Below are positions 29,974 to 55,427 of a DNA stretch of 64,000 nt, piece by piece. A program made the translations under genes and the position numbers. Each line of letters starts with the position of its first letter. The first letter of the stretch is position 1. The DNA is from an uncultured Bacillales bacterium (GTDB taxonomy: Bacteria > Bacillota_I > Bacilli_A > RFN20 > CAG-826), in NCBI GenBank assembly GCA_946403545.1, contig CAMJAG010000001.1, forward strand, positions 872-64,871, written 5' to 3'. The notes beneath the pieces were generated by a model. That model did no database searches, was not told the DNA's origin, and saw only the letters and a program-made list of their open reading frames with translations.

Positions 29974-30231
29974 TTATTCATAATGGGTCCACATACGAAT
30001 TATAACTACTGTGTTTTCATCTTTTCTAACCTCATAAATCAGTCTGTGTTGGACATTGATTCTACGTGAATAGACATTTTCAAAACCTACTAGTTTTTCA
30101 TATGATGGTGGCGTTTCAAACGGATTTTTTGATAGAAGTTCGATTAAAGCTTTTACTTTCTCTATTAATTTAGGATATTGTTTTAGTTTTTCGTAATCTT
30201 TAAAACATTGTTTACTAAAAACTATTTCCAT
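29974..30231 (-). CDS. yoeB: type II toxin, YoeB/Txe family mRNA interferase
   Basis: 85 aa. RRINVQHRLIYEV...VVIIRMWTHYE at the C-terminus is typical of YoeB. Overlaps the antitoxin gene by 10 nt. Confidence 0.8.
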   Translation of the reverse strand: MEIVFSKQCFKDYEKLKQYPKLIEKVKALIELLSKNPFETPPSYEKLVGFENVYSRRINVQHRLIYEVRKDENTVVIIRMWTHYE

Positions 30232-30467
30232 GGAGGTTCTTTTGAAAAATCAGAAGTTGGAGTTTTAACAGCTTCCTCAATGTCTTCGTAAACACCTTTG
30301 ATACCCGCCAAATAGAGAGATTCAATTAAACTATTATATTCATCCGCACTGAGAAGAATAACACTACCTTCTTTTGTGCTGATATTAACTGTATCGTTAT
30401 ATCTAATGCACGAAGAAGCAAGCTTGTAAAGTTCATCTCTAGCTTTGCTAATATTTAAATTAATCAT
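30222..30467 (-). CDS. yefM: type II antitoxin, Phd/YefM family
   Basis: 81 aa. The N-terminus ISKARDELYKL...VILLSADEYNSLIESL is typical of YefM/Axe. Confidence 0.8.
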   Translation of the reverse strand: MINLNISKARDELYKLASSCIRYNDTVNISTKEGSVILLSADEYNSLIESLYLAGIKGVYEDIEEAVKTPTSDFSKEPPWK

Positions 30468-38314: not shown

Positions 38315-38408
38315 ATTGAAATTATTATACGATATCTGTATTTATTTATAAATAAGTAAGAGGACAAATCATGTCCTCACACTACTTATTGACATATATA
38401 TAAAATGA

Positions 38409-38965
38409 AAGAGCATTGGAACCCAGTGAAGTCATCTTGCTGATGGCTGGGGCCCAACCAAAAGAGAAGGATATTCGGGATACTGAATATCTAACAAGAC
38501 CTGTTTATCAGGTATTCCGGGATTAAAATACCGCTTTGGTTGGTGGCGCATAATGCTCTTCGATGTAAGTAGACACCCGAGTAGGCACTACAAGAGGCTC
38601 TGTAGCAATACATCCCACGATAAGATGTTAGTCTGAGAAACTAATATCTACGTTCTCAAAGAAAGTGTTTGGCTTGATGGTAAGCAATTACCTATAACTA
38701 CTTTGGTGGGCACTAGTAGGAGAATGCCAGCGAGTTTTGGATCTACGACAAGATAAAAAATATAGCTGAAGCTCTCTGAAAGTTGGAAGATGATGTAACT
38801 CTTCCCATGGTACGGTAGCAATACCCATTCCAGAAGTATTAGGGTCGCTCCCTCTTACTCAGCCTGGCGTGCATGTGTACGAAAAACAAATTAGAGTAAG
38901 TTATGTATGGCGAAGGTCATCAATGTACAAAAAAGGTGGATTCTTATGACTCCACCATTTTTATT
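38409..38965 (+). ncRNA. candidate large structured ncRNA (class unassigned; ROOL/GOLLD/OLE-scale)
   Basis: 684-nt gap with no ORF of 60 aa or more. Hand-counted G+C is 38-48% per 60-nt line, against about 22% in the adjacent gene. There are many nested helices, including 38409-38417/38552-38560 and 38454-38462/38535-38543. Several G-U pairs work only on the plus strand. It ends in a strong plus-strand terminator. The 5' end and the strand are inferred. Confidence 0.5.
38931..38965 (+). repeat. 35-nt direct repeat, copy 1 (terminator hairpin GGTGGA...TCCACC plus a T-run)
   Basis: AAAAGGTGGATTCTTATGACTCCACCATTTTTATT. Matches copy 2 at 33 of 35 positions. Confidence 0.85.
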
Positions 38966-38998
38966 TGTAGTATGAATGACACATGATAAAATGAATTC
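38965..38998 (+). promoter_or_regulatory. candidate promoter for a leaderless tandem-TIR mRNA
   Basis: TTGTAG (38965-38970), then 16 nt, then TGaTAAAAT with its -10 at 38987-38992, then 6 nt, then the ATG at 38999. No SD is present. Confidence 0.35.
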
Positions 38999-39829
38999 AT
39001 GAATAATGAAACAAATAAAAATGAATTAGAGAATGAGAAAGTTTATATTTTCATTTCGCATTCTCATAAAGATATAGAAAAAGTAAGAAAAATTAGAAAT
39101 TATTTAGAGAGTCTTGATTGTGAACCAATTCTTTTCTTTTTAAAAAGCAAAGATGATGAAGATGAGATAATTCAACTTATCAAAGACGAGATTGATGCTA
39201 GAGTTTGGTTTATTTATTGTAGATCTATAAATGCATCTAAATCTAAATGGGTTAATGATGAAGTAACATATGTTGAGCAAACAGGTAAAAACAACATAGT
39301 TATAGATATCGATGGATGCCTAGATGAAAATGGAGAATTAAAAAATAGCGTTAAAAATAAACTTAATGTCATTATTAACGGATTTAGAAACTTACAACAA
39401 TTGTATATTTCTTATTCACACAAAGACTCTGTTGAAGTTCTTCGTATTGTCCAGTTTTTAAAAAGATATGGTGTTGATTTGTTTTATGATGACATGACAC
39501 ATTTTGGATCAGATTGGAAACATTCTATTCATAATCAAATTGTTAAATCGCCATATTTTCTGGTTTTTTTAAGCAAACAATCCATTAATTCACATTTCAT
39601 TTATGATGAAATAAAGCTAGCACAATACTTTAATAAAGAAATAATTCCCGTAATTCTTTATAACAATATTAACGATTATTATTCAGTCATTGAATCAGAT
39701 GTTTTCCAAAAGAATTTTGCATACTTTTTAGTCTGTGAATTCGATACTTCTAGTGATGTTCAATTCAAAGTGTCCTCATTTAGACTGCTAAACACATTAT
39801 TAGAGCATTTCTTTACGGATTTTGAATAA
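38999..39829 (+). CDS. tandem double-TIR domain protein
   Basis: Two TIR-like units: VYIFISHSHKD...SKWVNDEV and LYISYSHKDS...SHFIYDEI. Each keeps the conserved Glu position. Confidence 0.7.
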   Translation: MNNETNKNELENEKVYIFISHSHKDIEKVRKIRNYLESLDCEPILFFLKSKDDEDEIIQLIKDEIDARVWFIYCRSINASKSKWVNDEVTYVEQTGKNNIVIDIDGCLDENGELKNSVKNKLNVIINGFRNLQQLYISYSHKDSVEVLRIVQFLKRYGVDLFYDDMTHFGSDWKHSIHNQIVKSPYFLVFLSKQSINSHFIYDEIKLAQYFNKEIIPVILYNNINDYYSVIESDVFQKNFAYFLVCEFDTSSDVQFKVSSFRLLNTLLEHFFTDFE

Positions 39830-39832
39830 AAG

Positions 39833-39867
39833 AAAAGGTGGATTCTCATGAGTCCACCATTTTTATT
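39833..39867. repeat. 35-nt direct repeat, copy 2 (bidirectional terminator between convergent genes)
   Basis: AAAAGGTGGATTCTCATGAGTCCACCATTTTTATT. 9-bp stem with an A-run before it and a T-run after it. Confidence 0.85.
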
Positions 39868-43198: not shown

Positions 43199-45580
43199 AT
43201 GTATCCTGAATTACTTGCTATTTTCATTATTACTGGAGTTGTTGAACTCGTTTTAATAGGTGTATTTTTTTATAACCTAATCAGATATAGATATCTTGGT
43301 AATAAATATTTTTACGTAACTGTAAGTGTATTAGTTCTTTTGATGTATTCAACATTCGTCAATAGATCATCAGATCTTTCTATTTCTATGTTTGGAAACA
43401 TAGTGTTTGACACTATTGCGGCAGCAGTAGGTAAAGTTGATACTGAAAAGATTTCTTGGCTGTTTTTACCGGGCGAATGGAATAAATGGCTAGTAATTTT
43501 CTACTTTATCGCCTCATATACAACATTCGCATTCTTATCCATCACAGTTATTCTTAACTTTGCAAAACTCTTCTTAAATGCATTTATTTTCTATAAAAGA
43601 CGAATTATAAATGGAGCAAATGTGTACTATTTGTTCACAGATTCTAGAAATGAAACAGTAATTCCTTTAGCCACTAAACTATTAGATGAAACAAAAGGTC
43701 GTAAAAACTCAGTTAAAGTTTTCGTTTCTAGAGCATCTTTAAAAACTCAAGAAGGTAATGAATTTAGAGATATGTTAGTGGGCTTAGGCATTCCTGTTCA
43801 AGCTGAAAAATTCTCATACAGGATGGCTAGAAAGATCTTTAATTCTAGATACTTCAAACTACATCTTTTTGATAAGCAACAATCGTTTATTTACTTACTT
43901 TTCTCAAATGACGAAACCACTACAAAAGTGGCAACTGATTTCAAAACAGCGATTCAAAAGAATCGTAAGTTTAAAAAAATTAACGACTTTGTAACTCTTT
44001 TAAAGGAAACAAAAGACAAAGATAAATTAGAGAAATTAAAAGAGAACTTTAATGAGAAAGAATATGATTTATTACAAAAAATCCAAATCTTTGTCACTTA
44101 TCAAGAAACAGATTTAGATATTCTCCATAACTTCTCTGGAGAGACATTGCATATCATGAATACTCTTTCTAAGTACGACATGATTGCTTCTAGATTTGTA
44201 TTTGATAATCCAATCTCTCAATTAGTGGACTTAAACAACATCAAACTTAAAGAAGACAATAAACATTTAAATGTTACACTCCTTGGTTTTGGTGTTATTG
44301 ATAGAGCAATATTTGAAAGAATGACATTCTCTTATCAACTTTATGGAGATAATATTAACAAAGTTAATTACCATGTTTTAGATAGAGATGCTGATTCTTT
44401 AATTAAACCTTATGTAAACGAATATACAGATAGAAATAACAGTGTTTATCTATACTCTATCGACTCCGCTTTCGATGGAGAAGATTTAAGACACTACGAA
44501 ACAATTGATAGATATATCTCATCATTGCAAAACGATCCAAACCGTTTCCAAGATGATGGTTTTGAAATCTTTGTTATTTCAGTCATAAACTCAAATAACG
44601 ATTTAAATATCGCGCTTAACTTAAGAAGAGCTATCTTAAAATACTTCAATGATAGATGTGAACAAGTTGTTATTTACGTCAGAGTTGCAGAAAGACTCAT
44701 TGGAGAACAATTCAGAGGTTCAAATCTTTCATACACATACGAAACTCTCTCTCATATTCACGAAGTAAAAGACTTCAATAAGAAATCTGATGTAGAGAAA
44801 GAAGCATACTTCAACTCATTCAAGGACGAGGAAGAAAGAAAAGCAGCAGAGAAAAGATTAATTAAAGATTTAAAAGCACCTATCATTCTCTTTGGTAATG
44901 ATGCAATTATGTCCACATATCTTGCTAGAGAACATAAATACTTCATGGGATTCGCTGAAAACGCTTGGAAATCCTACCAATTAGAACAAGCTTATAACAA
45001 TTATTCTGAAACTCAACTTGATAGATTATGGTTAAGACAAAATAAACAAGAAGTTAAAAATAACACTGATTATGTTCTTTCACTTAGAACAAAGCTAAAC
45101 TTATTTGGCTACAAACTAAATCTAAATAAACAAGAAAACCAATACTTAATGGTTCCTGGTGATGATGTTTCAATTCTTACTTCAGGTGAAAATGAAGAAA
45201 CATTCCTTGAAAGAACAAAACTTAAAGATGAAACTGGTGATGTTGCAAAAGTTCTTAAGATTGCTGATATGGAACATAACCGCTGGTTACAATCCAATAA
45301 CCAAAGATTTAGATATTTATCTAAAGATTACACAAAGGTCGAGGATCAAGAACTATTTGGAGTGAATAAATACACCAATGAAAAAGAAATCACAAGGAAA
45401 TATAACGACAATACACAACACATTTGTATGGTCACTAATGAGGGATTAAGAGACTTCTACAATTATGTTGGAAAGAAAAATCCTGAATATAAAGATGTCG
45501 CTTTAAAACTTGTGTACACAAACGATATTGTTCAGTTAAGAACGATAATCAAAAATGGAACAGAACAAAAGAATAAATAA
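43199..45580 (+). CDS. large membrane protein with Rossmann-like (GxGxxD) segment and weak C-terminal RyR-like signature
   Basis: Four or five N-terminal TM segments. VTLLGFGVIDRAI. C-terminal IADMEHNRWLQSN. SD GAGG. Confidence 0.5.
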   Translation: MYPELLAIFIITGVVELVLIGVFFYNLIRYRYLGNKYFYVTVSVLVLLMYSTFVNRSSDLSISMFGNIVFDTIAAAVGKVDTEKISWLFLPGEWNKWLVIFYFIASYTTFAFLSITVILNFAKLFLNAFIFYKRRIINGANVYYLFTDSRNETVIPLATKLLDETKGRKNSVKVFVSRASLKTQEGNEFRDMLVGLGIPVQAEKFSYRMARKIFNSRYFKLHLFDKQQSFIYLLFSNDETTTKVATDFKTAIQKNRKFKKINDFVTLLKETKDKDKLEKLKENFNEKEYDLLQKIQIFVTYQETDLDILHNFSGETLHIMNTLSKYDMIASRFVFDNPISQLVDLNNIKLKEDNKHLNVTLLGFGVIDRAIFERMTFSYQLYGDNINKVNYHVLDRDADSLIKPYVNEYTDRNNSVYLYSIDSAFDGEDLRHYETIDRYISSLQNDPNRFQDDGFEIFVISVINSNNDLNIALNLRRAILKYFNDRCEQVVIYVRVAERLIGEQFRGSNLSYTYETLSHIHEVKDFNKKSDVEKEAYFNSFKDEEERKAAEKRLIKDLKAPIILFGNDAIMSTYLAREHKYFMGFAENAWKSYQLEQAYNNYSETQLDRLWLRQNKQEVKNNTDYVLSLRTKLNLFGYKLNLNKQENQYLMVPGDDVSILTSGENEETFLERTKLKDETGDVAKVLKIADMEHNRWLQSNNQRFRYLSKDYTKVEDQELFGVNKYTNEKEITRKYNDNTQHICMVTNEGLRDFYNYVGKKNPEYKDVALKLVYTNDIVQLRTIIKNGTEQKNK

Positions 45581-45588
45581 CCTATGAA

Positions 45589-45614
45589 AAGCCATAGAAC
45601 TGGCTTTTCTTTTT
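45589..45614 (+). terminator. intrinsic terminator after the 793-aa gene
   Basis: AAGCCA (45589-45594) pairs with TGGCTT (45601-45606), followed by TTCTTTTT. Confidence 0.6.
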
Positions 45615-45632
45615 ACTTTACACTACAAATAC

Positions 45633-45645
45633 ACGCATAATGCGT
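45633..45645. promoter_or_regulatory. perfect palindrome ACGCAT-A-ATGCGT abutting a TATAAT box (candidate operator)
   Basis: Palindrome at 45633-45645. TATAAT at 45648-45653. The operon starts at 45695. Confidence 0.3.
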
Positions 45646-45694
45646 TATATAATGGATTTGTAGAAATACAAATATAGCAATGGAGAATTAGATT

Positions 45695-46618
45695 ATGATT
45701 ACAGAAATTCATAAGAATTATTCTGCTTTTCGAGAAATGTTGTTAGCCACAACTGCTTTAAGCAACCGTTCTAGTAAGAAATATGATGACGATTGCAAAG
45801 CAATCATTGATTTCATCGGAGAAGCATATGGTCTAGAAAAAGACCTCGTAGAATATTGTAAAAAGGTCATTTTAGATGAACTAGTTACAATATCTACTGA
45901 CCAAGATATCCGCGCTTTCGTAAATTCACATACCGCTGACAGTGAATTAGAAGAATTAGACTCTTTATTAAGCGCTAAATGTGATGTTATTGGAGTTATT
46001 AGAAACTTTGGAGAAGTTAGAAGTCCTCAATTAAGTGAGACTTGGTTTGACTATAGTCATAGCAATCCATATTATCCAGAAATTAGATATCAACAATTAT
46101 CTATCGCTGCTTCCACAGGTAATGTAGTAGCAAATAAGATCGTTGGTATTCTTTCTGTTTTAGGTATTGGATGCGAAGCTACTAGAGAAAAGGTTCTTTC
46201 TGGAGTTTATAGACTTAGACAATGCGCTATTTGGGGAGACATTTCTTCTCTAATTATGATTAGACAAGTTTATAGAATCTTAGAAATGAAAGAACAAGTA
46301 AAACTCTATGATGAATTAGTGTCATTAGTACCTTTCATGAAAGAAGGAAGAACAGTAATTCCTCAAAGAATTGCAGAGAAAATCTCTAGAGAAGCAATAG
46401 AAACATTCGCAATTATCTGTTCTATTAAACAAGACATTATCTTAAATCAACATAAGTTCTACATAGATTATTCATTCGTTGAAGTTATGTTACTTAAAGA
46501 AGTTGATTACTATGATAAACTCCACTTCATTAATAAATATGACGCTCAAGAGTGGAAAGAAGTTACTAACTCATCATTTAATCCAAATAAGAAGATTGGA
46601 TTTAAGATTGGAGAATAG
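45695..46618 (+). CDS. helical repeat protein (Sel1/TPR-like?)
   Basis: 307 aa. The segment AASTGNVVANKIVGILSVLGIGCEATREKVLSGVYRLRQCAIWGD resembles Sel1-like repeats. SD GGAG. Confidence 0.35.
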   Translation: MITEIHKNYSAFREMLLATTALSNRSSKKYDDDCKAIIDFIGEAYGLEKDLVEYCKKVILDELVTISTDQDIRAFVNSHTADSELEELDSLLSAKCDVIGVIRNFGEVRSPQLSETWFDYSHSNPYYPEIRYQQLSIAASTGNVVANKIVGILSVLGIGCEATREKVLSGVYRLRQCAIWGDISSLIMIRQVYRILEMKEQVKLYDELVSLVPFMKEGRTVIPQRIAEKISREAIETFAIICSIKQDIILNQHKFYIDYSFVEVMLLKEVDYYDKLHFINKYDAQEWKEVTNSSFNPNKKIGFKIGE

Positions 46619-46621
46619 ATT

Positions 46622-48586
46622 ATGAAAAGAAGACCATATTCTGAACAAGTATCTCAAAAATACATTGATCAAAATCTTGAAAACACTCAAATAATGTCCT
46701 TCCTTGAATATAAAGGTAAAGGCTACGCTAAATACTTATTTGATGATTTAGCAAAAACTGATATCAAAGGATTCCCATTCTCTAGTGATTTTGTATCTTC
46801 TAAAGGGAAATCATATTCCTTTATTGATTTTGAAAATCTAAGTGATAAAGAAAAAGCGGATTGTAAACTTAGATTCTTCTATTTACCTAATTATCATGAG
46901 TTATATATCGGTACTACTGGTTCTGGTAAAACTACAGGATGTATTGAACCACAAATCAGAGCGATATCCACTCAAAAGAATAAAGCTAACTTATTTATTA
47001 CTGACCCTAAAGGTGAGTTATTTGAACATAATGGTAAATACTTAAAAGACCAAGGTTATAACGTATTTGTTCTTAACTTTAGAAACTTAGGTAGAACTCA
47101 TACATGGAATCCACTTAAAGAAATGTATGAAAAACAAATGGAATCTCTCACTATTGGAAAGAATAGTAAGAAATGTAATTGTCCAGTAGATAAGTCACTA
47201 GCGTTAATGTCTGAAAAGAGTAAATATCAAGGCACATATATTGCTTATAAACACATGGCATTTGCAACACAAGAAGACTTTGATAAATACGTGAATATTG
47301 AAACTTATTTAAATAAATCCAAAGTTTCTTCATTAGTTAACCAATTATGTGACTGTATCTTTAGTGAAGATAAATCCACTACAGATAGAACTTGGAGTGA
47401 TGGTGCTAGAGGATTATTCCATGGTATTTTATTGTCCATGTTAGAAGAAGCTGTTTTACCAGGAAGTAAGTTTAGCGAACAACATATGACATTAAAGACA
47501 GTTAACGATATCTTCAATTTAATTAGAGAAGGTAGCGAAACTCGCGATTCATATGGAGATCACTACACTAACGAAGAAATGCATGAGAAGATGGTAGACT
47601 TCTTGCATGGTAAATCATCTATTTGTATGAGCAAGTTAAATAATATTATTAAGACTGCTCAAACAACGAGAAAAGGGTTTTTATCAACATTCTTATCCAC
47701 TACTGAAAAATGGATGCAAGGTCACATCTATCAATTGACAAGTCATACATCTATTTCTCTAGAAGATAATGAACATCCTTGGGCGGTATTTGTATCCACT
47801 AGAGACTATGATAAATCAGATAATGTTATCGCTGGTTTATTCATTGACTGGGTATATAGACAATCTCTACAAGCTGTTGAAGAGAAACGTAAACTCGGTT
47901 TAGAACCTAGACCAATTCACTTCTTATTAGATGAATTCGCTAACATTCCAAGAATCCCTGACTTTGATAATAAGATTGCTACTGCTAGAAGTAGAAATAT
48001 GTGGTTCCACTTATTCGTTCAATCTTATGATCAATTAGATTTAATCTATGGAGAAGAAACAGCCTCTATTATCGTAGATAACTGTAACCAACAAACATTC
48101 TTAGGTTCTCAATCTCAAGAAACTAAAGAAAGATTCTCTAGAGAATGTGGTAAAAAGACTGTTACATCCTTAGAAGGTGTTATTCATGGTGAAGTTAACG
48201 ATGTTGTAGAAATCCCAGTTGTGCCTATCACAAGTCTAGATCAAATCAAACCTGGTGAAATGTACACTAAACGTATTTATTCTCCAATATTAAGATGTAG
48301 CTTTATCAGAAGCTATCAATGCGCTCAACAAGGTATCTTTAAAAACTTCTGGAATAATAAAGCGGAAGAAGAACTTATTCCACTTAACTATGTTATTCCT
48401 GATGATTTAGAACATTCTTATTTACCAGTATTAAGCGCTATTGAAGTAAGAAGATTATGTCCACCTAGACCAAGAAATCCTCGTAGTAGAGTTCAATACG
48501 AAGATGAAGACATGGAAGCAGAAGATCCTGAAGACTTTGAAGACTTCTTACATGAAGTTCAACTTAAGATGAAAGGAAAGAAGTAG
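46622..48586 (+). CDS. soluble VirD4/TraG/TraD-family (type IV coupling protein-like) P-loop ATPase
   Basis: Walker A GTTGSGKTTG. FITDPKGE. Walker B-like HFLLDEFANIP. Also FHLFVQSYDQL. No N-terminal TM segments. Acidic C-terminal tail. Confidence 0.7.
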   Translation: MKRRPYSEQVSQKYIDQNLENTQIMSFLEYKGKGYAKYLFDDLAKTDIKGFPFSSDFVSSKGKSYSFIDFENLSDKEKADCKLRFFYLPNYHELYIGTTGSGKTTGCIEPQIRAISTQKNKANLFITDPKGELFEHNGKYLKDQGYNVFVLNFRNLGRTHTWNPLKEMYEKQMESLTIGKNSKKCNCPVDKSLALMSEKSKYQGTYIAYKHMAFATQEDFDKYVNIETYLNKSKVSSLVNQLCDCIFSEDKSTTDRTWSDGARGLFHGILLSMLEEAVLPGSKFSEQHMTLKTVNDIFNLIREGSETRDSYGDHYTNEEMHEKMVDFLHGKSSICMSKLNNIIKTAQTTRKGFLSTFLSTTEKWMQGHIYQLTSHTSISLEDNEHPWAVFVSTRDYDKSDNVIAGLFIDWVYRQSLQAVEEKRKLGLEPRPIHFLLDEFANIPRIPDFDNKIATARSRNMWFHLFVQSYDQLDLIYGEETASIIVDNCNQQTFLGSQSQETKERFSRECGKKTVTSLEGVIHGEVNDVVEIPVVPITSLDQIKPGEMYTKRIYSPILRCSFIRSYQCAQQGIFKNFWNNKAEEELIPLNYVIPDDLEHSYLPVLSAIEVRRLCPPRPRNPRSRVQYEDEDMEAEDPEDFEDFLHEVQLKMKGKK

Positions 48587-48587
48587 T

Positions 48588-49133
48588 ATGGCTAACGATA
48601 ATTTTGAAGAATTATATAAACAAGGAATTATAGTCATCACTACTGGTATAGAAGATATGGATGTTACTAGTAACATCATCTTATCTCTTCTTAATTGGAA
48701 CAGAATTGATCCAAAGAAAGAATTACAACTCTATATCTCTTCAGTATCTGGAGACTACCTAAATGTCCTTTCTATTTATGACGCTATCCAATCAATTAGT
48801 AATCCAATTTCAGGATATTGTATTGGTTTAGTTGGTAGTTGCGCTGCACTACTTTTAGCGGCGTGTAACAAAGGTAAACGCTACATTTTAGAGCATAGTC
48901 AAATTGCTTTAAGAGAGATTTCTGGCATTATTCCTGGTGGAAGTAAACAACAAACAGAAATCGAAATTCTCGCAAACGAATTAGCGTCTCAAAGAGAAAC
49001 ATTTGAATCTCTTCTTTCAAAACATACAGGTCAATCCGTTGAAGAAATACACCACCTTTGCTATGAAAACACTTATTTAACTCCTGAAGAAGCTATTAAA
49101 AAAGGCTTCGTAGATAAGATTGTGAGGAAATAA
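48588..49133 (+). CDS. ClpP-like (S14) subunit, predicted catalytically inactive
   Basis: Aligns by eye with ClpP. Ser is kept (GLVGSCAA), but His is replaced (IALREI versus IHQP) and Asp is replaced (YENTYL versus ERDRFL). Confidence 0.6.
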   Translation: MANDNFEELYKQGIIVITTGIEDMDVTSNIILSLLNWNRIDPKKELQLYISSVSGDYLNVLSIYDAIQSISNPISGYCIGLVGSCAALLLAACNKGKRYILEHSQIALREISGIIPGGSKQQTEIEILANELASQRETFESLLSKHTGQSVEEIHHLCYENTYLTPEEAIKKGFVDKIVRK

Positions 49134-49135
49134 TT

Positions 49136-49648
49136 ATGGATAACAGAATTATTACTTTAAATGGTGAAATCAACGAAGGAAGCGCGATGAAAGTTATTCT
49201 TTCATTACTTCAAATGGATGCTGAAAATAGAAAACAACCAATATATCTATATATCAACTCTCCTGGTGGAAATATTGTTCATGGATTAGCAATATATGAT
49301 GTTATGAATAACATATCCGCTCCGGTATATACAGTATGTAATGGCATGGCAGCATCGATGGGTAGTTTCTTACTCTCTTGTGGTGCTAAAGGACATAGAT
49401 ATTGTTTAAAACACTCTCGTATTCTTATCCATCAACCACTTGTCTATAACAACTATGGAAGAATGATTGAAGAAAGCGAAGCTCAACAAATCGCCGCTAA
49501 TTTAAGAAAAGATAGAGATAAATTAGAACAAATCATGGCAGACAATTCTGGTAAAGACATTAAAGTCTTCCATAAGGATTGTGAAAGAGACCATTGGATG
49601 AGCGCTCAAGAAGCTCTAGACTATGGTCTAATAGATAAGATTATCTAA
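49136..49648 (+). CDS. ClpP-like (S14) serine protease subunit, catalytic triad intact, N-terminal axial region missing
   Basis: YINSPGG, GMAASMG (Ser), ILIHQP (His) and CERDHWMSAQEA (Asp). It starts at the position equivalent to RVIFLTG of canonical ClpP. Confidence 0.7.
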   Translation: MDNRIITLNGEINEGSAMKVILSLLQMDAENRKQPIYLYINSPGGNIVHGLAIYDVMNNISAPVYTVCNGMAASMGSFLLSCGAKGHRYCLKHSRILIHQPLVYNNYGRMIEESEAQQIAANLRKDRDKLEQIMADNSGKDIKVFHKDCERDHWMSAQEALDYGLIDKII

Positions 49649-49650
49649 GA

Positions 49651-49680
49651 AAAGAGGAAGTCCTAGACTTCCTTTTATTT
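49651..49680. terminator. bidirectional terminator shared by the convergent operons
   Basis: GGAAGTC (49656-49662) pairs with GACTTCC (49666-49672), flanked by an A-run and a T-run. Confidence 0.65.
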
Positions 49681-50433
49681 CACTCTATTAAGTATTAACT
49701 CAAGTGTTTCTTGGTTATTTGCAACCACTAATGAATCGCTACCAAATTCGTATTCTTTTTTATTGATGGTTTTATAAACCATTCCAGCTTCTTTTATCAA
49801 TAAAAGACCTGGTGCTATATCCCATATGTAATTGTAGTAGCAGATATATGCTTGTGCTTTTGATGTGGCTAATGTAGTAAAGTCTACACAAGCCGCTCCT
49901 AAAAGTCTCGTTTTAAGGAAATTCCCTTGTAAATCCTTCATTAATTCAAATTGTTTATCAAATGAAATGGTTTTGTTATCTTTATAAAAATCACTAGATA
50001 ATAAAACTCCATCTTCATGTTTAATATCTTTATTTACTTTAATAGGTTTTCCATTAAGGAAAGCTCCACCATCTTTCTTAGCAAGATATAACTCATCCTT
50101 ATATGGCAAATAGATTATTGATAACACTACTTCTTTCCTTTGGAAAACCGCTAGTTGAATACCACAAAGTTCTATGCCCATTGAATAGTTACAAGTGCCA
50201 TCAAGTGGATCGATAACAAAGGTTAGTTCATCTGTTAGTGGTTCGTTTTTACTTTCTTCTGCGATTATTTTTGCTTGAGGGAATTCTTTTTTAATAGCGT
50301 TAACAAAATAATCATTAAGTTCTAAATCCGCTTCTGAGAGTAAGTCATTAATAGATTTATGTTTAATTGATTTATGTTGCTTAAAGAATATGTCTTTTGA
50401 AGATAAAACTAGTTGTTTTAAATACTCTTCCAT
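49675..50433 (-). CDS. inositol monophosphatase / CysQ-family phosphatase
   Basis: Motifs IDPLDGTCNY and WDIAPG. Starts 4 nt after the TIR-STAND stop. Confidence 0.75.
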   Translation of the reverse strand: MEEYLKQLVLSSKDIFFKQHKSIKHKSINDLLSEADLELNDYFVNAIKKEFPQAKIIAEESKNEPLTDELTFVIDPLDGTCNYSMGIELCGIQLAVFQRKEVVLSIIYLPYKDELYLAKKDGGAFLNGKPIKVNKDIKHEDGVLLSSDFYKDNKTISFDKQFELMKDLQGNFLKTRLLGAACVDFTTLATSKAQAYICYYNYIWDIAPGLLLIKEAGMVYKTINKKEYEFGSDSLVVANNQETLELILNRVK

Positions 50434-50437
50434 GCGA

Positions 50438-53284
50438 TTATCCCTTCAAATCTCTAATAAATTTCTCAACATGTTTAATCCATGTTAATACTGATTCATT
50501 TTGTAAGTATTCGTATTTTCTTGTTACTTTTTGTGCTTCGCAAATCAAATTATATAAAGCTTGTGCTTCAGTTAATTCGATTGGAATATTTAGTTTTTCC
50601 GCAATTTCAATTGCTTCAGAACAAGGAGCTTCCGCTTTTGCAAGTAAGGAAGTATCTCCATTATAGTTTACTAAATAGTAAAGAGAAGTTAAGAAATAGA
50701 TTTGACCTTGGTCATATAAATCTTTATTCTCTTTAGCACATTTCATTGCTTCTTCTTTTAATTCCATGATCCTTGCTTCATTGCCACGATTAACAATTTC
50801 ATAGAACATAGATGTATATAAGAATCTTGTGTAATATCTATCATGTTGGTTATATAAGACATAGATTGCTTCCGCTTTATTAAGTTTATCTTTAGCTTTA
50901 GCTAAATCCATATGCCATATACATGCATCAGCGTATACACGATAGTCTTCCGCTAAGAAGAGGTGATCTCCAATTTGAGTGCCATCTTCCATTTCTTCTT
51001 TAACTCTTTTATCAAGAAGCGCGACAGCATTATCTGCTGCTTTATAGCAGTTTTCTAAATCAAGCCTTCTACAATAAACTTTTGATAAAGTTAAGTTAAT
51101 CAAAGATTCTTCGTATAAATCGCCTGCTTCTTTAGCGTCTTTGATCGCACCATCACTCATTCCTATGAGTTCGTCGAATAGCACCATCTTGCGATAAACA
51201 AGCATTGCCATTCTTTCAAATTCACTACGAATTTCTATGTCTAATTCGCCTAAATCATGTTCTTTGATGAATTCTTTAATGTCATTAAATGCTTCAGTAA
51301 ATGATAAGGAAATATAGTGGAATTGAATAACTCCCATATCATAGTTCACATCATCACTTGGATCTCTATTCTTTAAGAACTTACCAAATCCTGCTTCTTT
51401 AAGTTTGATAAATAAGCCAGCGTTATAGATTGCTTGTCTATATTTGATAAAGATTTTTGTAAAACATTCAGACTGATAGATTTCAAACGCTTCATAATCA
51501 TCATCCTTATAGATGTAATTGATGTTATCAATGTATTCAAATAATCCTTCATAAAGAGTGTAAAGTTTTGATTTAATACACACTCTTAAAAAGTCAAAAT
51601 TCTTTAATAGTTTACAAAGTTTTTCTGTCTTTTTAAGTGCTTTTAAGGCTTTTTGATAGTCTAAGATGACATAAGGATTGTTCTTCCATTCACCTAATTC
51701 AATTTGCTTTTCAATATATTCAAGCAAGATCTTATAACCATCTCTTCTAGAGACACAATATTTTGCAGGACATTCGTTAGATTCACTTAACCAGTCTAAA
51801 ATTGATTTATGTCTACTCTTAAGAGTGCCATCTTCAATAATTACAAAGTAATTAGATACTATATCGATATTCTTTCTAATTTCAGATTCTGATAGACCTG
51901 TTGCATCCGCTAAAAACTCCACTGTTGGAGGAACGCTTGTAGCGAGTAATAAAGATATAATCTTTCTAATATCTTCATAATCATCTGGTGCTTTAGGGAA
52001 AATTCTATCAAACCAGATTAAGTAGTATGAATAAATTCCGTCAGGGAATTCTCTAACGTTATCTAAAGAGTATTCACCACTCTTAATTAGACTAACAATA
52101 CTCTTAGCATATAAGAATGATCCATGTGTTTTTCCAAGCAAAATCCTCAGTGTTTCTGCATCGAATTTATAATTTGAGAGTGCTTGGTCATAATACTTTT
52201 TAATATCCGCAACGTTTTCTTCATTGTTTTCTAACATGCTGAAAACGTGACAACTTGAGAAGTAACTAACAACATTCTTTTGAGGTCTAGTTGAACATAA
52301 AATCTTTAACCAAGAAGGTAAAGTGTTTTGATAAGTCACTATCATCTCAGCAATTTCATTTTTATTATCCAAAACTGCTTCATCTAATGCATCGATAACA
52401 ATTATTTGAGGGTTCTTAAAAGTAACTTTGTTACCTACTTCAATAAAGAACAACTCAAATAATCTTTTAGCGTCTAAATTATCTATATTTGCTTCTCTAG
52501 TTAAAATCTTTTTAATTTCGAGATTATAATCTTCGTTACGACCAGCGATTTGTGCTGCTAAGTTTTTAATAATACTTCTAGCGTCAGTCTTAGTTCTATT
52601 ACCAAAGCTACAGAAATGGATACCTGCAACATTGTTATGGAAATTAATAGTTAACATAGCGCACATTGCAGTCTTTCCAATACCTGGAGCAGCTTGTAAT
52701 AAATAGATTGGTAAACTATCTGGTTTATTAATCCATTTTTCTACATCCGCGAAGAAAGAATCTCTACCAACAAAGTTGAGTGTATGATGAGTAATTTCAA
52801 AAGCGTCAATAGCTTGGACTTCTTTAGAAATATCAAAACCAGTATCGAAGTAGCCTACTTCTTCTTCGTTTCTAACGATCTTTAGTAATCTTTGATAGCA
52901 ACTTTCGTATACATCTTCAATGATTGAATTATCCGCTGCGACAGCGTTTTTAATCATGATTCTTTGTAAACGAACAATTGAAAGAGGAACATAAGAGTCA
53001 TCTAACATGATAGGAACAATTGTTTTCTTATATTCCACTGCTCTAGCGAGTTCATTTAAACAATATCCGTCTAGAGAAACAGACTTTTTAGATACAAAGA
53101 AAACAAAATGACTACATCTTTGAATCGCGTTATCAATTTTAGTTTCCCAATCACCTTGATATAGATAGTCCTTATCAAGGAAGACTTCATAAACTTCTTC
53201 TTTGCGTAAATCAGTAACAACTTTATTGACTACGTTTTCTAAAGTTTGATGTCCATAGGATATGAAAATAACTTGTTTATCCAT
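50438..53284 (-). CDS. TIR - STAND P-loop NTPase - TPR-like repeat protein (Avs/bNACHT-like architecture)
   Basis: TIR (VIFISYGHQ...GYCLNELA). Walker A APGIGKTA. Walker B IIVIDALDEA. The C-terminal roughly 400 aa is a helical repeat region. Confidence 0.75.
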   Translation of the reverse strand: MDKQVIFISYGHQTLENVVNKVVTDLRKEEVYEVFLDKDYLYQGDWETKIDNAIQRCSHFVFFVSKKSVSLDGYCLNELARAVEYKKTIVPIMLDDSYVPLSIVRLQRIMIKNAVAADNSIIEDVYESCYQRLLKIVRNEEEVGYFDTGFDISKEVQAIDAFEITHHTLNFVGRDSFFADVEKWINKPDSLPIYLLQAAPGIGKTAMCAMLTINFHNNVAGIHFCSFGNRTKTDARSIIKNLAAQIAGRNEDYNLEIKKILTREANIDNLDAKRLFELFFIEVGNKVTFKNPQIIVIDALDEAVLDNKNEIAEMIVTYQNTLPSWLKILCSTRPQKNVVSYFSSCHVFSMLENNEENVADIKKYYDQALSNYKFDAETLRILLGKTHGSFLYAKSIVSLIKSGEYSLDNVREFPDGIYSYYLIWFDRIFPKAPDDYEDIRKIISLLLATSVPPTVEFLADATGLSESEIRKNIDIVSNYFVIIEDGTLKSRHKSILDWLSESNECPAKYCVSRRDGYKILLEYIEKQIELGEWKNNPYVILDYQKALKALKKTEKLCKLLKNFDFLRVCIKSKLYTLYEGLFEYIDNINYIYKDDDYEAFEIYQSECFTKIFIKYRQAIYNAGLFIKLKEAGFGKFLKNRDPSDDVNYDMGVIQFHYISLSFTEAFNDIKEFIKEHDLGELDIEIRSEFERMAMLVYRKMVLFDELIGMSDGAIKDAKEAGDLYEESLINLTLSKVYCRRLDLENCYKAADNAVALLDKRVKEEMEDGTQIGDHLFLAEDYRVYADACIWHMDLAKAKDKLNKAEAIYVLYNQHDRYYTRFLYTSMFYEIVNRGNEARIMELKEEAMKCAKENKDLYDQGQIYFLTSLYYLVNYNGDTSLLAKAEAPCSEAIEIAEKLNIPIELTEAQALYNLICEAQKVTRKYEYLQNESVLTWIKHVEKFIRDLKG

Positions 53285-53966
53285 GTACTTTTTCCTCTAA
53301 AGCAATGTTATAACCCGCTTTCTTGCCTTCATTTAATGTTTCTTCATTTGCTAAATGCATAAGAGTAATTTTCTTTCTCTCTTCCATATTGAAGGCGTTA
53401 TTTAATACTGAAATATGAGTATGTATCATCGCATTAAGAGAAGTTGTAACTTCATGATACATTTCATCTATTTTTCCTGATTTAAGTTCTCTAACTGCTC
53501 TATCAAGTAGTTCAGATGTATCTCCTGAATAGTAGAAATTAATTTCTTTAGAATATACAAAATATGCATAACTACCAGGAATATGTGGAACTTCAACAGG
53601 TTCCACTTTTAAATCTTTGATTAAAGAGTAGTCATTATATATTTCAAAATCAAAATCTAAACCAGTTAATTGGAGTAGTTTTTTAAGATTATCTTTTAAA
53701 GGATAGAAGACTTTTACCGTCTTTTTTGAGAAGAAATGAATCCAATATAAGAATGGTTCAAGGCTTCCAATATGATCACTATGAAGATGGGTAATTAAAA
53801 CAACAATTTCATCAACATCATCTAAAAGATGAAGTGCTAAAATCTTGTCACAAATTTTCTCGCCCATATCAAAAATATACAATTTGCCATTTTGTTTAAA
53901 ATAAGCACAATTGTTATTTGTGAAATAGTTAAAAGCGGCTCCTACACCTAAAAATTTTAAATACAT
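53277..53966 (-). CDS. metallo-beta-lactamase-fold hydrolase
   Basis: HxHxDH motif as ITHLHSDHIG. Overlaps the TIR-STAND start by 8 nt. Confidence 0.75.
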   Translation of the reverse strand: MYLKFLGVGAAFNYFTNNNCAYFKQNGKLYIFDMGEKICDKILALHLLDDVDEIVVLITHLHSDHIGSLEPFLYWIHFFSKKTVKVFYPLKDNLKKLLQLTGLDFDFEIYNDYSLIKDLKVEPVEVPHIPGSYAYFVYSKEINFYYSGDTSELLDRAVRELKSGKIDEMYHEVTTSLNAMIHTHISVLNNAFNMEERKKITLMHLANEETLNEGKKAGYNIALEEKVHG

Positions 53967-53968
53967 AA

Positions 53969-54226
53969 TTATTTAATTATCTTATAGCCTTCTTTAAGAA
54001 TACATTTAATCGTAGCAAGAGCGGTATTCCTATCATATTCTTTTTCTTCTTCAGGAAGTTCATCATAAGGCACTAAACAAGGAGTTTGTTTTTTAGTGTC
54101 ATTTCTTTCTGGACCATAGGTCCATCCATCTTTGATTCTTCCTTCCATCCAAGTTATATGGACTTGTTCCGCTATTATTTCGATAAGTTGTTTTATATCT
54201 TCAGTGATAACAATATCTTTTTCCAT
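53969..54226 (-). CDS. stand-alone RyR (ryanodine-receptor repeat) domain protein
   Basis: AEQVHITWMEGRIKDGWTYGPERNDTKKQTPCLVPYDELPEEEKEYDR closely follows the bacterial RyR-domain consensus. Confidence 0.7.
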   Translation of the reverse strand: MEKDIVITEDIKQLIEIIAEQVHITWMEGRIKDGWTYGPERNDTKKQTPCLVPYDELPEEEKEYDRNTALATIKCILKEGYKIIK

Positions 54227-54228
54227 AA

Positions 54229-54666
54229 TTATTCGTCTTCTAGTATTTTTTGAAATAAGCTGTATTCATCTCTAGTTATTGTATCATCACTAGCAGTTAG
54301 AGCGATACCATATAAAACAACAGCAGTTTTAGTATCTTCATCAAATTCTTCTTTGATATTATTTACCATTGCTTTAACAAAAGCTTCTTTATCTCCAAAT
54401 TGAGTAGCATGGAAGAATTCTCTATAAGAAACATCTAATCCTGTTGCTTCTTTAAAGAATCCATATTCCTTAACAGCGCAATCTTTATCAGCAGAAACGT
54501 ACATTCTAGTTAAGTTAATAACAATATTAGCGATTCTATCTTTGTGATAATCTTGTTTTCTAAGATTACGATAAAGTCTTTCTAAAGCTTGTCTACCTAA
54601 CTTTGCTCTTTCAGCATCTTCTAAATTAACAACTTCATGCATGACTCGTTCTACTTCTTTATTCAT
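54229..54666 (-). CDS. TerB-like domain protein (paralog 2)
   Basis: Two half-motifs, YVSADKDCAVKEYGFF and LTASDDTITRDEYSLF, resemble TerB. Confidence 0.5.
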   Translation of the reverse strand: MNKEVERVMHEVVNLEDAERAKLGRQALERLYRNLRKQDYHKDRIANIVINLTRMYVSADKDCAVKEYGFFKEATGLDVSYREFFHATQFGDKEAFVKAMVNNIKEEFDEDTKTAVVLYGIALTASDDTITRDEYSLFQKILEDE

Positions 54667-54681
54667 AATATGTTCTTCCTA

Positions 54682-54903
54682 TTATTTTTTACTTTTTAGA
54701 TTACAAGCATTTGGGAAATTAATTTCCCACGCTGCTGCTCTTGCTATTTGAAGTAATTTATATTTCTTATCTTCATCAGTTATCTCTTTGATAACTTCTT
54801 TAGTATTTGGATTTAACAAAAATATTTTGGATTCTTTAACTCCAAATACTGAATCTCTTACTTCGTATAAGTGTCTTCCGTTACGAAATTGAAATGGTTT
54901 CAT
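54682..54903 (-). CDS. hypothetical small protein
   Basis: 73 aa. Its start overlaps the upstream stop (TAATG). Confidence 0.45.
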   Translation of the reverse strand: MKPFQFRNGRHLYEVRDSVFGVKESKIFLLNPNTKEVIKEITDEDKKYKLLQIARAAAWEINFPNACNLKSKK

Positions 54904-55331
54904 TATGCAAGCAATTTGTCGATTAAATCTTGTTCTGCAACTGTTAATGTGTGGTCACTTGCTAAGAAAGTAACTGCAAATAAGACCATACTTGTTCTTG
55001 TTTTGTTATCTGCTTTTTTCATTAAGTTAGCAAATTCATTAACATAATCATCATCTAAGCCACCATTGGTCATGTCATAGAATGTATCTGTATCCATATC
55101 AATACCAGTGACTGCTCTAAAGAAAGAATATTCTGCTCCACTACATTTGCCATCAGCAGAAACTAAAATTCTAACTAAGTGAATAATTAAGTTAGTAATT
55201 TCATCCTTATTACAACCGAGTTCTTTTAAACCTCCGATAAAGTCGTTTAAAGCATGTGCAGCAATATTAACTTTTTCTTGTGGTTCTTCGTTTAAAATGT
55301 TTTGGCACATTTTTCTTAATTCAGCATCCAT
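54903..55331 (-). CDS. TerB-like domain protein (paralog 1)
   Basis: LVSADGKCSGAEYSFF and FLASDHTLTVAEQDLI. I prefer the ATG at 55331 (MDAELRK), which lies 7 nt after GGGAGGA. The ORF-track start is 55349. Confidence 0.5.
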   Translation of the reverse strand: MDAELRKMCQNILNEEPQEKVNIAAHALNDFIGGLKELGCNKDEITNLIIHLVRILVSADGKCSGAEYSFFRAVTGIDMDTDTFYDMTNGGLDDDYVNEFANLMKKADNKTRTSMVLFAVTFLASDHTLTVAEQDLIDKLLA

Positions 55332-55427
55332 ATGAAATCCTCCCATCATTAATGAAAGACTTCAAACATATAGTTTTTGTCCATTCAATTACATATAAAT
55401 ATCTGTCTAAATTTATTTTATCATTTT

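Follow-up and report, generated by a model that had tools for sequence, protein, structure and literature searches.

A protein built of two different TIR domains is encoded in a 64,000-nucleotide (nt) stretch of DNA from an uncultured Bacillales bacterium (contig CAMJAG010000001.1, positions 872 to 64,871), which is called the window below. The TIR domain is a nicotinamide adenine dinucleotide (NAD+)-cleaving module common to bacterial, plant and animal immunity. In the 276-amino-acid (aa) protein considered here, profile matches indicate that the N-terminal half (N-TIR) is a truncated, ThsB-like TIR and that the C-terminal half (C-TIR) is a canonical TIR like those of SARM1, Cat1 and AbTir. 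Two-TIR proteins of about 250-275 aa form a sizeable but unstudied family with hundreds of members. The family would put the usual chemistry of TIR domains into a minimal architecture that has not been described before, with a notable division of labour between the two TIRs. To judge from its sequence, there is roughly an even chance that the TIR-TIR protein acts as a stand-alone, single-gene NAD+-cleaving enzyme (NADase) of the abortive-infection type, belonging to the host's repertoire against phages and other mobile elements.

Two dissimilar TIR domains in one protein

The whole protein scores 93.2 bits against the Pfam family TIR_2 (E=2.1e-26), in two separate stretches, and 40.4 bits against ThsB_TIR. 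The curated Pfam cut-offs are 28 for TIR_2 (PF13676), 21.2 for ThsB_TIR (PF08937) and 21.3 for TIR (PF01582), and each half exceeds them on its own. When scanned alone, the N half (aa 1-131) reaches 39.7 bits with TIR_2 and 30.0 with ThsB_TIR, and the C half (aa 128-276) reaches 57.7 bits with TIR_2 and 23.3 with TIR. An AlphaFold2 model of the protein is confident (pLDDT 89.4, pTM 0.79), and its halves adopt the flavodoxin-like beta-alpha fold that superposes on solved TIR structures. In the model, the N domain extends from a strand at aa 15-20 to a helix at aa 116-131, and the C domain from a strand at aa 135-138 to a helix at aa 253-273; the Pfam limits are aa 17-105 and aa 136-222. The pTM value alone indicates that the two predicted domains would be held in a defined arrangement. 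An identical protein (P0222) is encoded on a 74-kb NCBI/ENA contig.

A sequence-only reading of this stretch had proposed two TIR-like units, at aa 15-110 and aa 135-235, both with the Glu used by NAD+-cleaving TIRs. The Pfam scores uphold the two units, the confident AlphaFold2 model agrees with a TIR fold, and both Glu residues, E88 and E204, align with the Glu of known TIRs. The proposed limits match those of Pfam and the model, except that the C domain continues to about aa 273. The same reading also suggested that the covalent tandem might pre-form one of the head-to-tail (BE-type) interfaces through which TIR enzymes act, which is a reasonable idea.

In enzymatic TIRs, this Glu stands where helix C begins, and position -4 is usually aromatic. 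Both halves appear to conform, with W84 preceding E88 and F200 preceding E204, and in the model these motifs fall in predicted helices at aa 83-95 and aa 199-210. The counterpart of E88 in 8btn_B ('W.WE'), 9m0n_A and TLR2 is the W..E motif Glu. E204 pairs with the Glu of the 'W.hKEL' motif in TIR-1/SARM1 and with its equivalents in AbTIR and Cat1. The catalytic Glu is E642 in SARM1 and E208 in AbTir, and the aromatic residue four positions before it lines the NAD+ pocket.

The two halves are only 23% identical and represent different TIR subtypes, so a recent internal duplication is ruled out. The family profile reaches canonical NAD+-cleaving TIRs through the C half only, where it matches Cat1 (3.4e-11), TIR-1 of C. 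elegans (7.5e-9), AbTIR (8e-8) and then SARM1. The N half alone matches the ThsB-type TIR 8btn_B (1.7e-5), and all its further matches are weak; a literature search on structure 8BTN returned nothing useful. The PADLOC models for ThsB also match mainly the N half, the best of them at 1e-14.

Conservation differs sharply between the two domains. In an alignment of 41 sequences, mean pairwise identity is 58% for the N-TIR, 20% for the linker, 26% for the C-TIR and 18% for the C-terminal tail. The invariant columns, 21 in number, all lie within the N-TIR. Residue counts from the 163-member family alignment follow the same pattern. F18, D25, E37, L48, E64, I65, R68, F71 and E88 occur in every member, S20, H21, R33, P43, S76 and S82 in 162, and W84 in 156. 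The N-TIR segment EPILFFLKS, which comprises strand B and the first part of the BB loop, is essentially fixed. The only standouts of the C-TIR are D143 (144 of 163), E204 (144, or 88%), A208 (141) and S138 (137). Position 200, four residues before E204, is aromatic in 99 of the 163, and the C-TIR Glu is lost in about 12% of relatives. Among three sister-strain variants of the window protein, nine positions vary in all, and seven of these belong to the C half. In a subfamily of 357-aa relatives, an offline hidden Markov model (HMM) scan gives about 141 bits to the N-TIR and 18-20 bits to the C-TIR; these relatives therefore carry a degenerate C-TIR remnant rather than a swappable non-TIR module at the C-terminus.

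This pattern suggests that the N-TIR is the indispensable core of the family and is probably catalytic. From the same alignments we infer that the C-TIR is usually competent for catalysis, and evolves like the sensing or regulatory parts of defence proteins.

Family members and their gene neighbourhoods

A word-indexed search recovered 87 relatives, nearly all of 250-290 aa and matching both PF13676 and PF08937; the best of them, other than the protein itself, are 51-53% identical to it. An exhaustive profile search of 1.84 billion representatives yielded 721 proteins at E<=1e-30, and most of the top 150 are 245-275 aa long and align to the full two-domain profile in a single stretch. When one genome per species was scanned, 72 loci of TIR-TIR relatives were located. 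Almost all are in metagenome-assembled genomes (MAGs) of gut or rumen Bacillota, including Clostridia, Christensenellaceae, Oscillospiraceae, Bacilli, Erysipelotrichales and Anaeroplasma. Bacteroidales contribute a few more, and a Methanobrevibacter bin contributes one. The nearest relatives of the window protein are found in rumen 'Bacilli bacterium' MAGs. This patchy distribution suggests horizontal spread. No full-length relative was found in 50,697 phage records, 72,556 plasmids or IMG/VR, a result that speaks against a phage or plasmid origin and against an anti-defence role.

Variant architectures include triple-TIR, Macro-TIR-TIR (one relative), DUF4062-TIR-TIR, TIR-TIR-WD40 and TIR-TIR-Sel1 proteins. 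The family profile also matches giant proteins of 1,400-2,300 aa (P0088-P0092 and similar) with five to seven TIR stretches each, which may be eukaryotic. NCBIfam holds no model that names the protein, and no account of a bacterial TIR-TIR protein standing on its own turned up in our literature search; the one 'tandem TIR' case that it did yield, alongside unrelated uses of such terms, was TirE of Dictyostelium, a eukaryote.

For the analysis of neighbouring genes, all open reading frames (ORFs) of the 72 loci were clustered, and recurrence within four genes of the TIR-TIR gene was counted over 67 loci. No cluster exceeds 4 of the 67. Among 108 immediate (±1) neighbours, the commonest Pfam family is TIR_2 (5/108), followed by TPR repeats and methyltransferases, and SIR2, SLOG and Macro are absent from the most frequent families. 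Further TIR proteins lie within 10 kb in 14 of the 72 loci (about 20%, for which no genome-wide baseline was computed), as well as in the window. The settings vary widely. Locus L073 is a defence island with AAA_21/RloB, Fic and Abi_2 proteins, and L076/L096 is one with AbiEii, DUF6577 and a 617-aa TIR protein. In a third such island, L001, a gene for a TIR-NB-ARC-TPR protein lies directly downstream. The TIR-TIR gene is at the edge of a serine-recombinase element in L077-79, and in L080 and L081 it stands alone in ordinary housekeeping surroundings, among starch-utilisation genes in the former and between chromate-transporter genes and greA in the latter. NUDIX genes lie beside it in L002/L075 and L047, and these, together with the Macro fusion, would point to ADP-ribose (ADPR) chemistry. 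No partner gene is obligatory for the TIR-TIR protein.

One set of genes does recur next to several relatives, although its order is shuffled. Its members are a VirD4-like ATPase, two adjacent ClpP paralogues, a 307-319-aa protein, a 793-991-aa protein, two TerB-like proteins, an RyR-domain protein and a TIR-STAND NTPase, to which Cupin-NUDIX and HD genes are added in relatives. The 991/793-aa protein has no match in Pfam or NCBIfam, and relaxase and VirB4 genes are absent from the set. In L002, L074 and L075, the TIR-TIR gene points the same way as the Cupin-NUDIX and HD genes that precede it, the gaps being about 17-150 nt, and is itself followed by the TerB-like pair, a 316/319-aa gene, the VirD4-like ATPase and both ClpP genes. 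L096 carries the ClpP pair, the RyR gene and the VirD4-like gene within 10 kb of the TIR-TIR gene, and L047 has a VirD4-like ATPase, a TIR-methyltransferase and a NUDIX-GNAT gene near it. In the window, the same co-residents lie 3.4-16 kb away. The relatives with this gene set are 40-50% identical to the window protein. Since the order of the genes changes from case to case and most relatives do without them, we read the set as frequent co-residence in one type of conflict island, rather than as proof of one machine. Rather than serving conjugation, the set itself may be a multi-gene system for defence or conflict that has not been described.

The local island and an adjacent ROOL RNA

The TIR-TIR gene is located at the edge of a block of about 38.4-55.4 kb with ordinary genes on both sides (Table 1): one flank encodes an S41 peptidase and a PNPOx-like protein, and the opposite flank a cysteine-synthase-type PALP enzyme. 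Listed from the left, the components of the block are a ROOL RNA, the TIR-TIR gene, a lipoprotein, a helix-turn-helix regulator, a TIR-S-adenosylmethionine (SAM)-methyltransferase, the 793-aa protein, the 307-aa protein, the VirD4-like ATPase, the two ClpP paralogues and an inositol-monophosphatase-family protein. These are followed by the TIR-STAND NTPase, a metallo-beta-lactamase (MBL)-fold protein resembling Apyc1, the RyR-domain protein and the two TerB-like proteins. The VirD4-like ATPase matches a CD1115-type NCBIfam model at 240 bits, below the cut-off of 250. In L001 (Bacilli) and L047 (Clostridia), homologues of the TIR-methyltransferase are encoded no more than four genes from the TIR-TIR gene, and a homologue of the TIR-STAND protein is encoded three genes upstream of it in L002. 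The MBL-fold and inositol-monophosphatase-family proteins are candidates for enzymes that degrade nucleotide signals in the island.

Table 1. Coordinates of the TIR-TIR gene, its parts and associated features (window positions unless a locus is named; AF2, AlphaFold2 model)
Feature	Position	Strand	Details
ROOL RNA gene	38398..38938	+	Rfam RF03087, 187.6 bits (gathering threshold 99.1), model positions 1-574 of 574
Terminator-like hairpin, copy 1	38931..38965	+	End of ROOL, 33 nt before the ATG; -13.9 kcal/mol, z -3.2
Coding sequence of the 276-aa two-TIR protein	38999..39829	+	ATG to TAA, stop included; from the ORF list and the sequence
N-terminal TIR, aa 15-110	39041..39328	+	Short, ThsB-like, four predicted strands (AF2)
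E88 codon	39260..39262	+	N-TIR catalytic-position Glu, motif W84-x3-E88
Connecting helix between the TIR folds, aa 116-131	39344..39391	+	Predicted (AF2); strand 135-138 starts three residues on
C-terminal TIR, aa 135-273	39401..39817	+	Canonical, five predicted strands (AF2)
E204 codon	39608..39610	+	C-TIR catalytic-position Glu, motif F200-x3-E204
Terminator-like hairpin, copy 2	39833..39867	+	4 nt past the TIR-TIR stop, between convergent genes; -17.2 kcal/mol, z -4.7
TIR-SAM-methyltransferase fusion, 450 aa	41747..43099	-	N-terminal TIR and class I SAM methyltransferase; Methyltransf_31 79.7 bits, TIR_2 39.1 bits
Inositol-monophosphatase-family protein	49675-50433	-	Flanks the TIR-STAND gene
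TIR-STAND (NPHP3_N P-loop) NTPase, 948 aa	50438..53284	-	NPHP3_N 78.9 bits, TIR_2 57.8 bits
MBL-fold protein resembling the anti-Pycsar nuclease Apyc1	53277-53966	-	46 bits, below the cut-off of 50
Recurrent gene set	Window 43199-55349; L002 5747-20656; L074; L075; L096 18266-20801; L047 4334-6782		

No relaxase, VirB4 or integrase gene was found in the window, and the block is therefore not demonstrably a mobile element; its GC content is unremarkable. The first 30 kb of the window contain a mannan-utilisation operon and housekeeping genes. At positions 29974-30467 (minus strand) there is also a pair of genes for proteins of 81 and 85 aa with overlapping stop and start codons, which by eye looks like a YefM/Phd-type antitoxin with a YoeB/ParE-type toxin.

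The sequence-only reading had also held that no SIR2, SLOG or Macro partner and no other recognisable effector adjoins the gene, which could encode either a self-contained NADase toxin or a signal generator for effectors elsewhere in the island. None of these three proteins was detected among the window ORFs of at least 90 aa that were scanned or searched against solved structures, a set that comprises all such ORFs but three lying inside or overlapping longer genes. The absence of an adjacent ThsA-like or other recurrent effector likewise extends from the window to the 67 related loci. It is true that no effector is nearby, but the island is far from empty, since it encodes two more TIR proteins, the Apyc1-like MBL-fold protein, RyR and TerB-like proteins, the VirD4-like ATPase and two ClpP proteins. 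As to the two options, the TIR-TIR gene is solitary even among housekeeping genes (L081), so for the family as a whole the self-contained one is favoured, and in this lineage the protein may be a signal generator for the island.

The ROOL RNA scores well above its gathering threshold over the full model and ends 60 nt before the ATG of the TIR-TIR gene. It sits in a chromosomal conflict island with no adjoining tRNA and no obvious prophage, and published ROOL RNAs occur near tRNAs and in prophages (PMC5737381). The two terminator-like hairpins form a 35-nt direct repeat (AAAAGGTGGATTCTyATGAsTCCACCATTTTTATT) with 94% identity. They bracket the TIR-TIR gene and are the only two copies in the 64 kb, where none is expected by chance; the upstream copy has the weaker stem. 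The hairpin is absent from all 81 loci of relatives, and it is therefore not a general repeat. Its duplication around the gene suggests that the TIR-TIR gene was inserted or recombined, cassette-like, at the ROOL terminator together with a terminator copy. A promoter scan reported no consensus promoter between ROOL and the ATG, and the gene may be expressed partly by read-through from ROOL. By eye, no Shine-Dalgarno-like sequence is seen before the ATG (positions 38983-38998, plus strand), and an extended -10-like sequence, TGATAAAAT, lies only 7 nt 5' of it, where the promoter scan listed nothing. A transcript starting from this TGATAAAAT element could be leaderless.

The association with ROOL is not conserved. 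No ROOL was found by nhmmer with the window ROOL sequence in the 72 loci of relatives, nor by Rfam models in the loci of the 17 closest relatives, so the adjacency appears specific to this lineage. A conserved-motif scan of metagenome and viral collections gave 14 loci with one true ROOL (L093), which has a tRNA beside it and no TIR protein. A conserved ROOL-TIR link is thus ruled out.

Proposed function and comparison with known systems

If the TIR-TIR protein is indeed a single-gene NADase, the N-TIR would be the obligatory domain that cleaves NAD+ or makes an ADPR signal. TIR NADase sites are composite, formed between neighbouring TIRs and gated by the BB loop, and for this reason the variable C-TIR and its tail might be the partner TIR by which the active site is completed or gated. 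The C-TIR would also offer a fast-evolving surface for recognising a phage component. On activation, the protein would self-associate through TIR-TIR contacts into a higher-order TIR assembly, and the resulting NAD+ depletion would stop phage growth. Some relatives are found in islands with a defence flavour, with AbiEii, Abi_2, AAA_21/RloB, Fic and TIR-NLR-type proteins. The best reading by analogy is that the protein resembles SpbK (PMC12847820), a single-gene TIR NADase, and the TIR-like NADases Swarozyc (10.64898/2026.05.01.722283) and Evangelion (10.64898/2026.06.25.731849). Each of these combines a conserved core with a diversified region, and acts by NAD+ depletion and abortive infection.

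Several observations weigh against this proposal. The assignment of the N-TIR as catalytic core and the C-TIR as sensor or gate is drawn solely from conservation, and with E204 retained in 88% of members, the C-TIR may be just as catalytic as the N-TIR. Nor can many of the loci be recognised as defence islands, and the top neighbour family accounts for only the 5 of 108 genes noted above. The co-directional packing of the gene within a larger cluster in L002, L074 and L075 fits a multi-component system at least as well. The searchable literature contains no biochemical or phenotypic test of any family member.

It is somewhat unlikely that the protein is instead a ThsB-like signal generator, which would sense infection and convert NAD+ to an ADPR-derived messenger that is read by effectors encoded elsewhere. 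The recurrence of the same gene set beside relatives keeps this explanation alive for the present lineage. The readers would be the TIR-STAND NTPase, the VirD4-like ATPase with the two ClpP proteins, the TerB-like and RyR proteins and the 793/991-aa protein, and the NUDIX, HD, MBL and inositol-monophosphatase-like enzymes would switch the signal off. Such a role is consistent with the best scores of the N-TIR being on ThsB profiles, with the tight packing in L002, L074 and L075, with the return of these genes in the window, in L096 and partly in L047, and with the use of several divergent TIR proteins as sensors by Thoeris loci (10.1101/2021.01.06.425286). However, the association is seen in a minority of loci and forms no fixed operon, and most relatives, including the close L077-L081, have none of these genes nearby. 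Nor did the window reveal a domain that reads ADPR signals (SLOG, Macro, SAVED, STING, or CARF fused to an effector). An extension of the same idea would make the protein, in this lineage, one part of a large undescribed multi-gene conflict system, where it supplies an NAD-derived signal, the ATPase and protease execute the response, and NUDIX, HD and MBL enzymes reset it. We consider this unlikely, and a bolder variant that ties the protein to the adjacent ROOL RNA less likely still.

Alternatively, the protein might not kill cells at all, and could be a regulator or adaptor that hetero-oligomerises with the TIR-STAND or TIR-methyltransferase protein, or that hydrolyses or sequesters TIR-made signals and so sets a threshold or serves anti-defence. 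The clustering of TIR genes in the window and in 14 of the 72 loci, with TIR_2 as the commonest immediate neighbour, would suit such a function. Animals reportedly have a TIR-fold cADPR hydrolase (PMC13455253), and the VirD4-like gene of the window island belongs to a type that conjugative elements also carry. This role is nonetheless quite unlikely. The W-x3-E arrangement of the N-TIR, whose Glu is invariant across the 163 members, argues for an enzyme with a standard TIR site; no further TIR protein is encoded within 10 kb at about 80% of loci; no member turned up in the phage, plasmid and viral records searched, where anti-defence genes would be expected; and the window has no detected relaxase, VirB4 or integrase gene. 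Functional coupling to the upstream ROOL, for example by read-through co-transcription and action with or inside a ROOL assembly, is very improbable. The 60-nt spacing from a full-length ROOL, the bracketing hairpins with their weaker upstream copy, and the gap without a reported promoter are compatible with it, and a TIR-like NADase has been reported in a eukaryotic RNA-containing particle, the vault (10.64898/2026.05.01.722283). Against this, no ROOL was found in the scanned loci of relatives, the sole other ROOL recovered has a tRNA and not a TIR protein alongside, the published settings are near tRNAs and in prophages (PMC5737381), and the landing of two cargo items in one island can explain a lineage-specific adjacency.

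To our knowledge, TIR domains are active only when they assemble with one another, a step that normally needs a separate sensor domain or partner to drive it. A widespread family of nothing but two different TIRs, one frozen by selection and the other evolving fast, would be a minimal version of a TIR immune system. It could serve as a model for three questions: how one TIR is gated by another, whether the TIR fold can itself be the surface that senses a pathogen, and what ADPR products come from a ThsB-like domain that has no ThsA. The catalogue of defence systems would also gain a single-gene entry for gut and rumen anaerobes, which current defence-finding tools cover poorly. Another TIR defence protein is not astonishing in itself, but the size of the family, its simplicity and the question of a TIR gated by a TIR make it a good experimental target.

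Among catalogued systems, Thoeris is related through the N half, which is of the type of ThsB (PF08937; 6LHY, 8BTN chain B). This half exceeds the ThsB_TIR cut-off and is matched by several of the PADLOC ThsB models. No adjacent ThsA of the SIR2-SLOG, Macro-TM or another type was found in the window or in the loci of relatives, and canonical Thoeris is therefore ruled out. Where Thoeris loci have several TIRs, these are separate genes, whereas here a second, canonical TIR is fused in the same chain. A CBASS or Pycsar TIR effector is also rejected: the CAP12/PCTIR_TIR model (PF10137) gives 16.4 bits against a cut-off of 24.7, and the window revealed neither a CD-NTase nor a pyrimidine cyclase. 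Apart from the ThsB-type models, PADLOC returns only weak candidate matches. The nearest catalogued entry is the candidate PDC-S66, a profile of 282 positions that both halves match weakly in two stretches (E=3.2e-8, 31.4 bits), as do two neighbours of relatives. We found no published characterisation of PDC-S66, and the weak match is a lead rather than a classification.

SpbK of the B. subtilis element ICEBs1 has one TIR and a non-TIR region, whereas the second module here is a TIR too; the PADLOC spbK model matches only aa 5-40 (36 residues, E=1.6e-5), and the protein is not an SpbK member. Swarozyc and Evangelion share the same design, with a conserved N-terminal TIR-like NADase core that carries the catalytic Glu and a diversified C-terminal region needed for activation. 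They are also alike in their patchy distribution and in the location of part of their genes in defence islands. They differ in that their core is DUF4062, and the auxiliary region of the TIR-TIR protein is of TIR fold. DUF4062 (PF13271) scores only 19.9 bits here, over aa 17-72, and because this is below the cut-off of 24.7, the N-TIR is placed in the TIR_2/ThsB_TIR group; among the relatives, P0195 combines two TIRs with a DUF4062 domain. In SARM1/TIR-1, AbTir, Cat1 and the SPARTA TIR-APAZ protein, non-TIR sensor domains (ARM/SAM, CARF, Argonaute) drive the TIR. In the TIR-TIR protein, by contrast, the sole other domain is a TIR, and the canonical C-TIR is the less conserved half.

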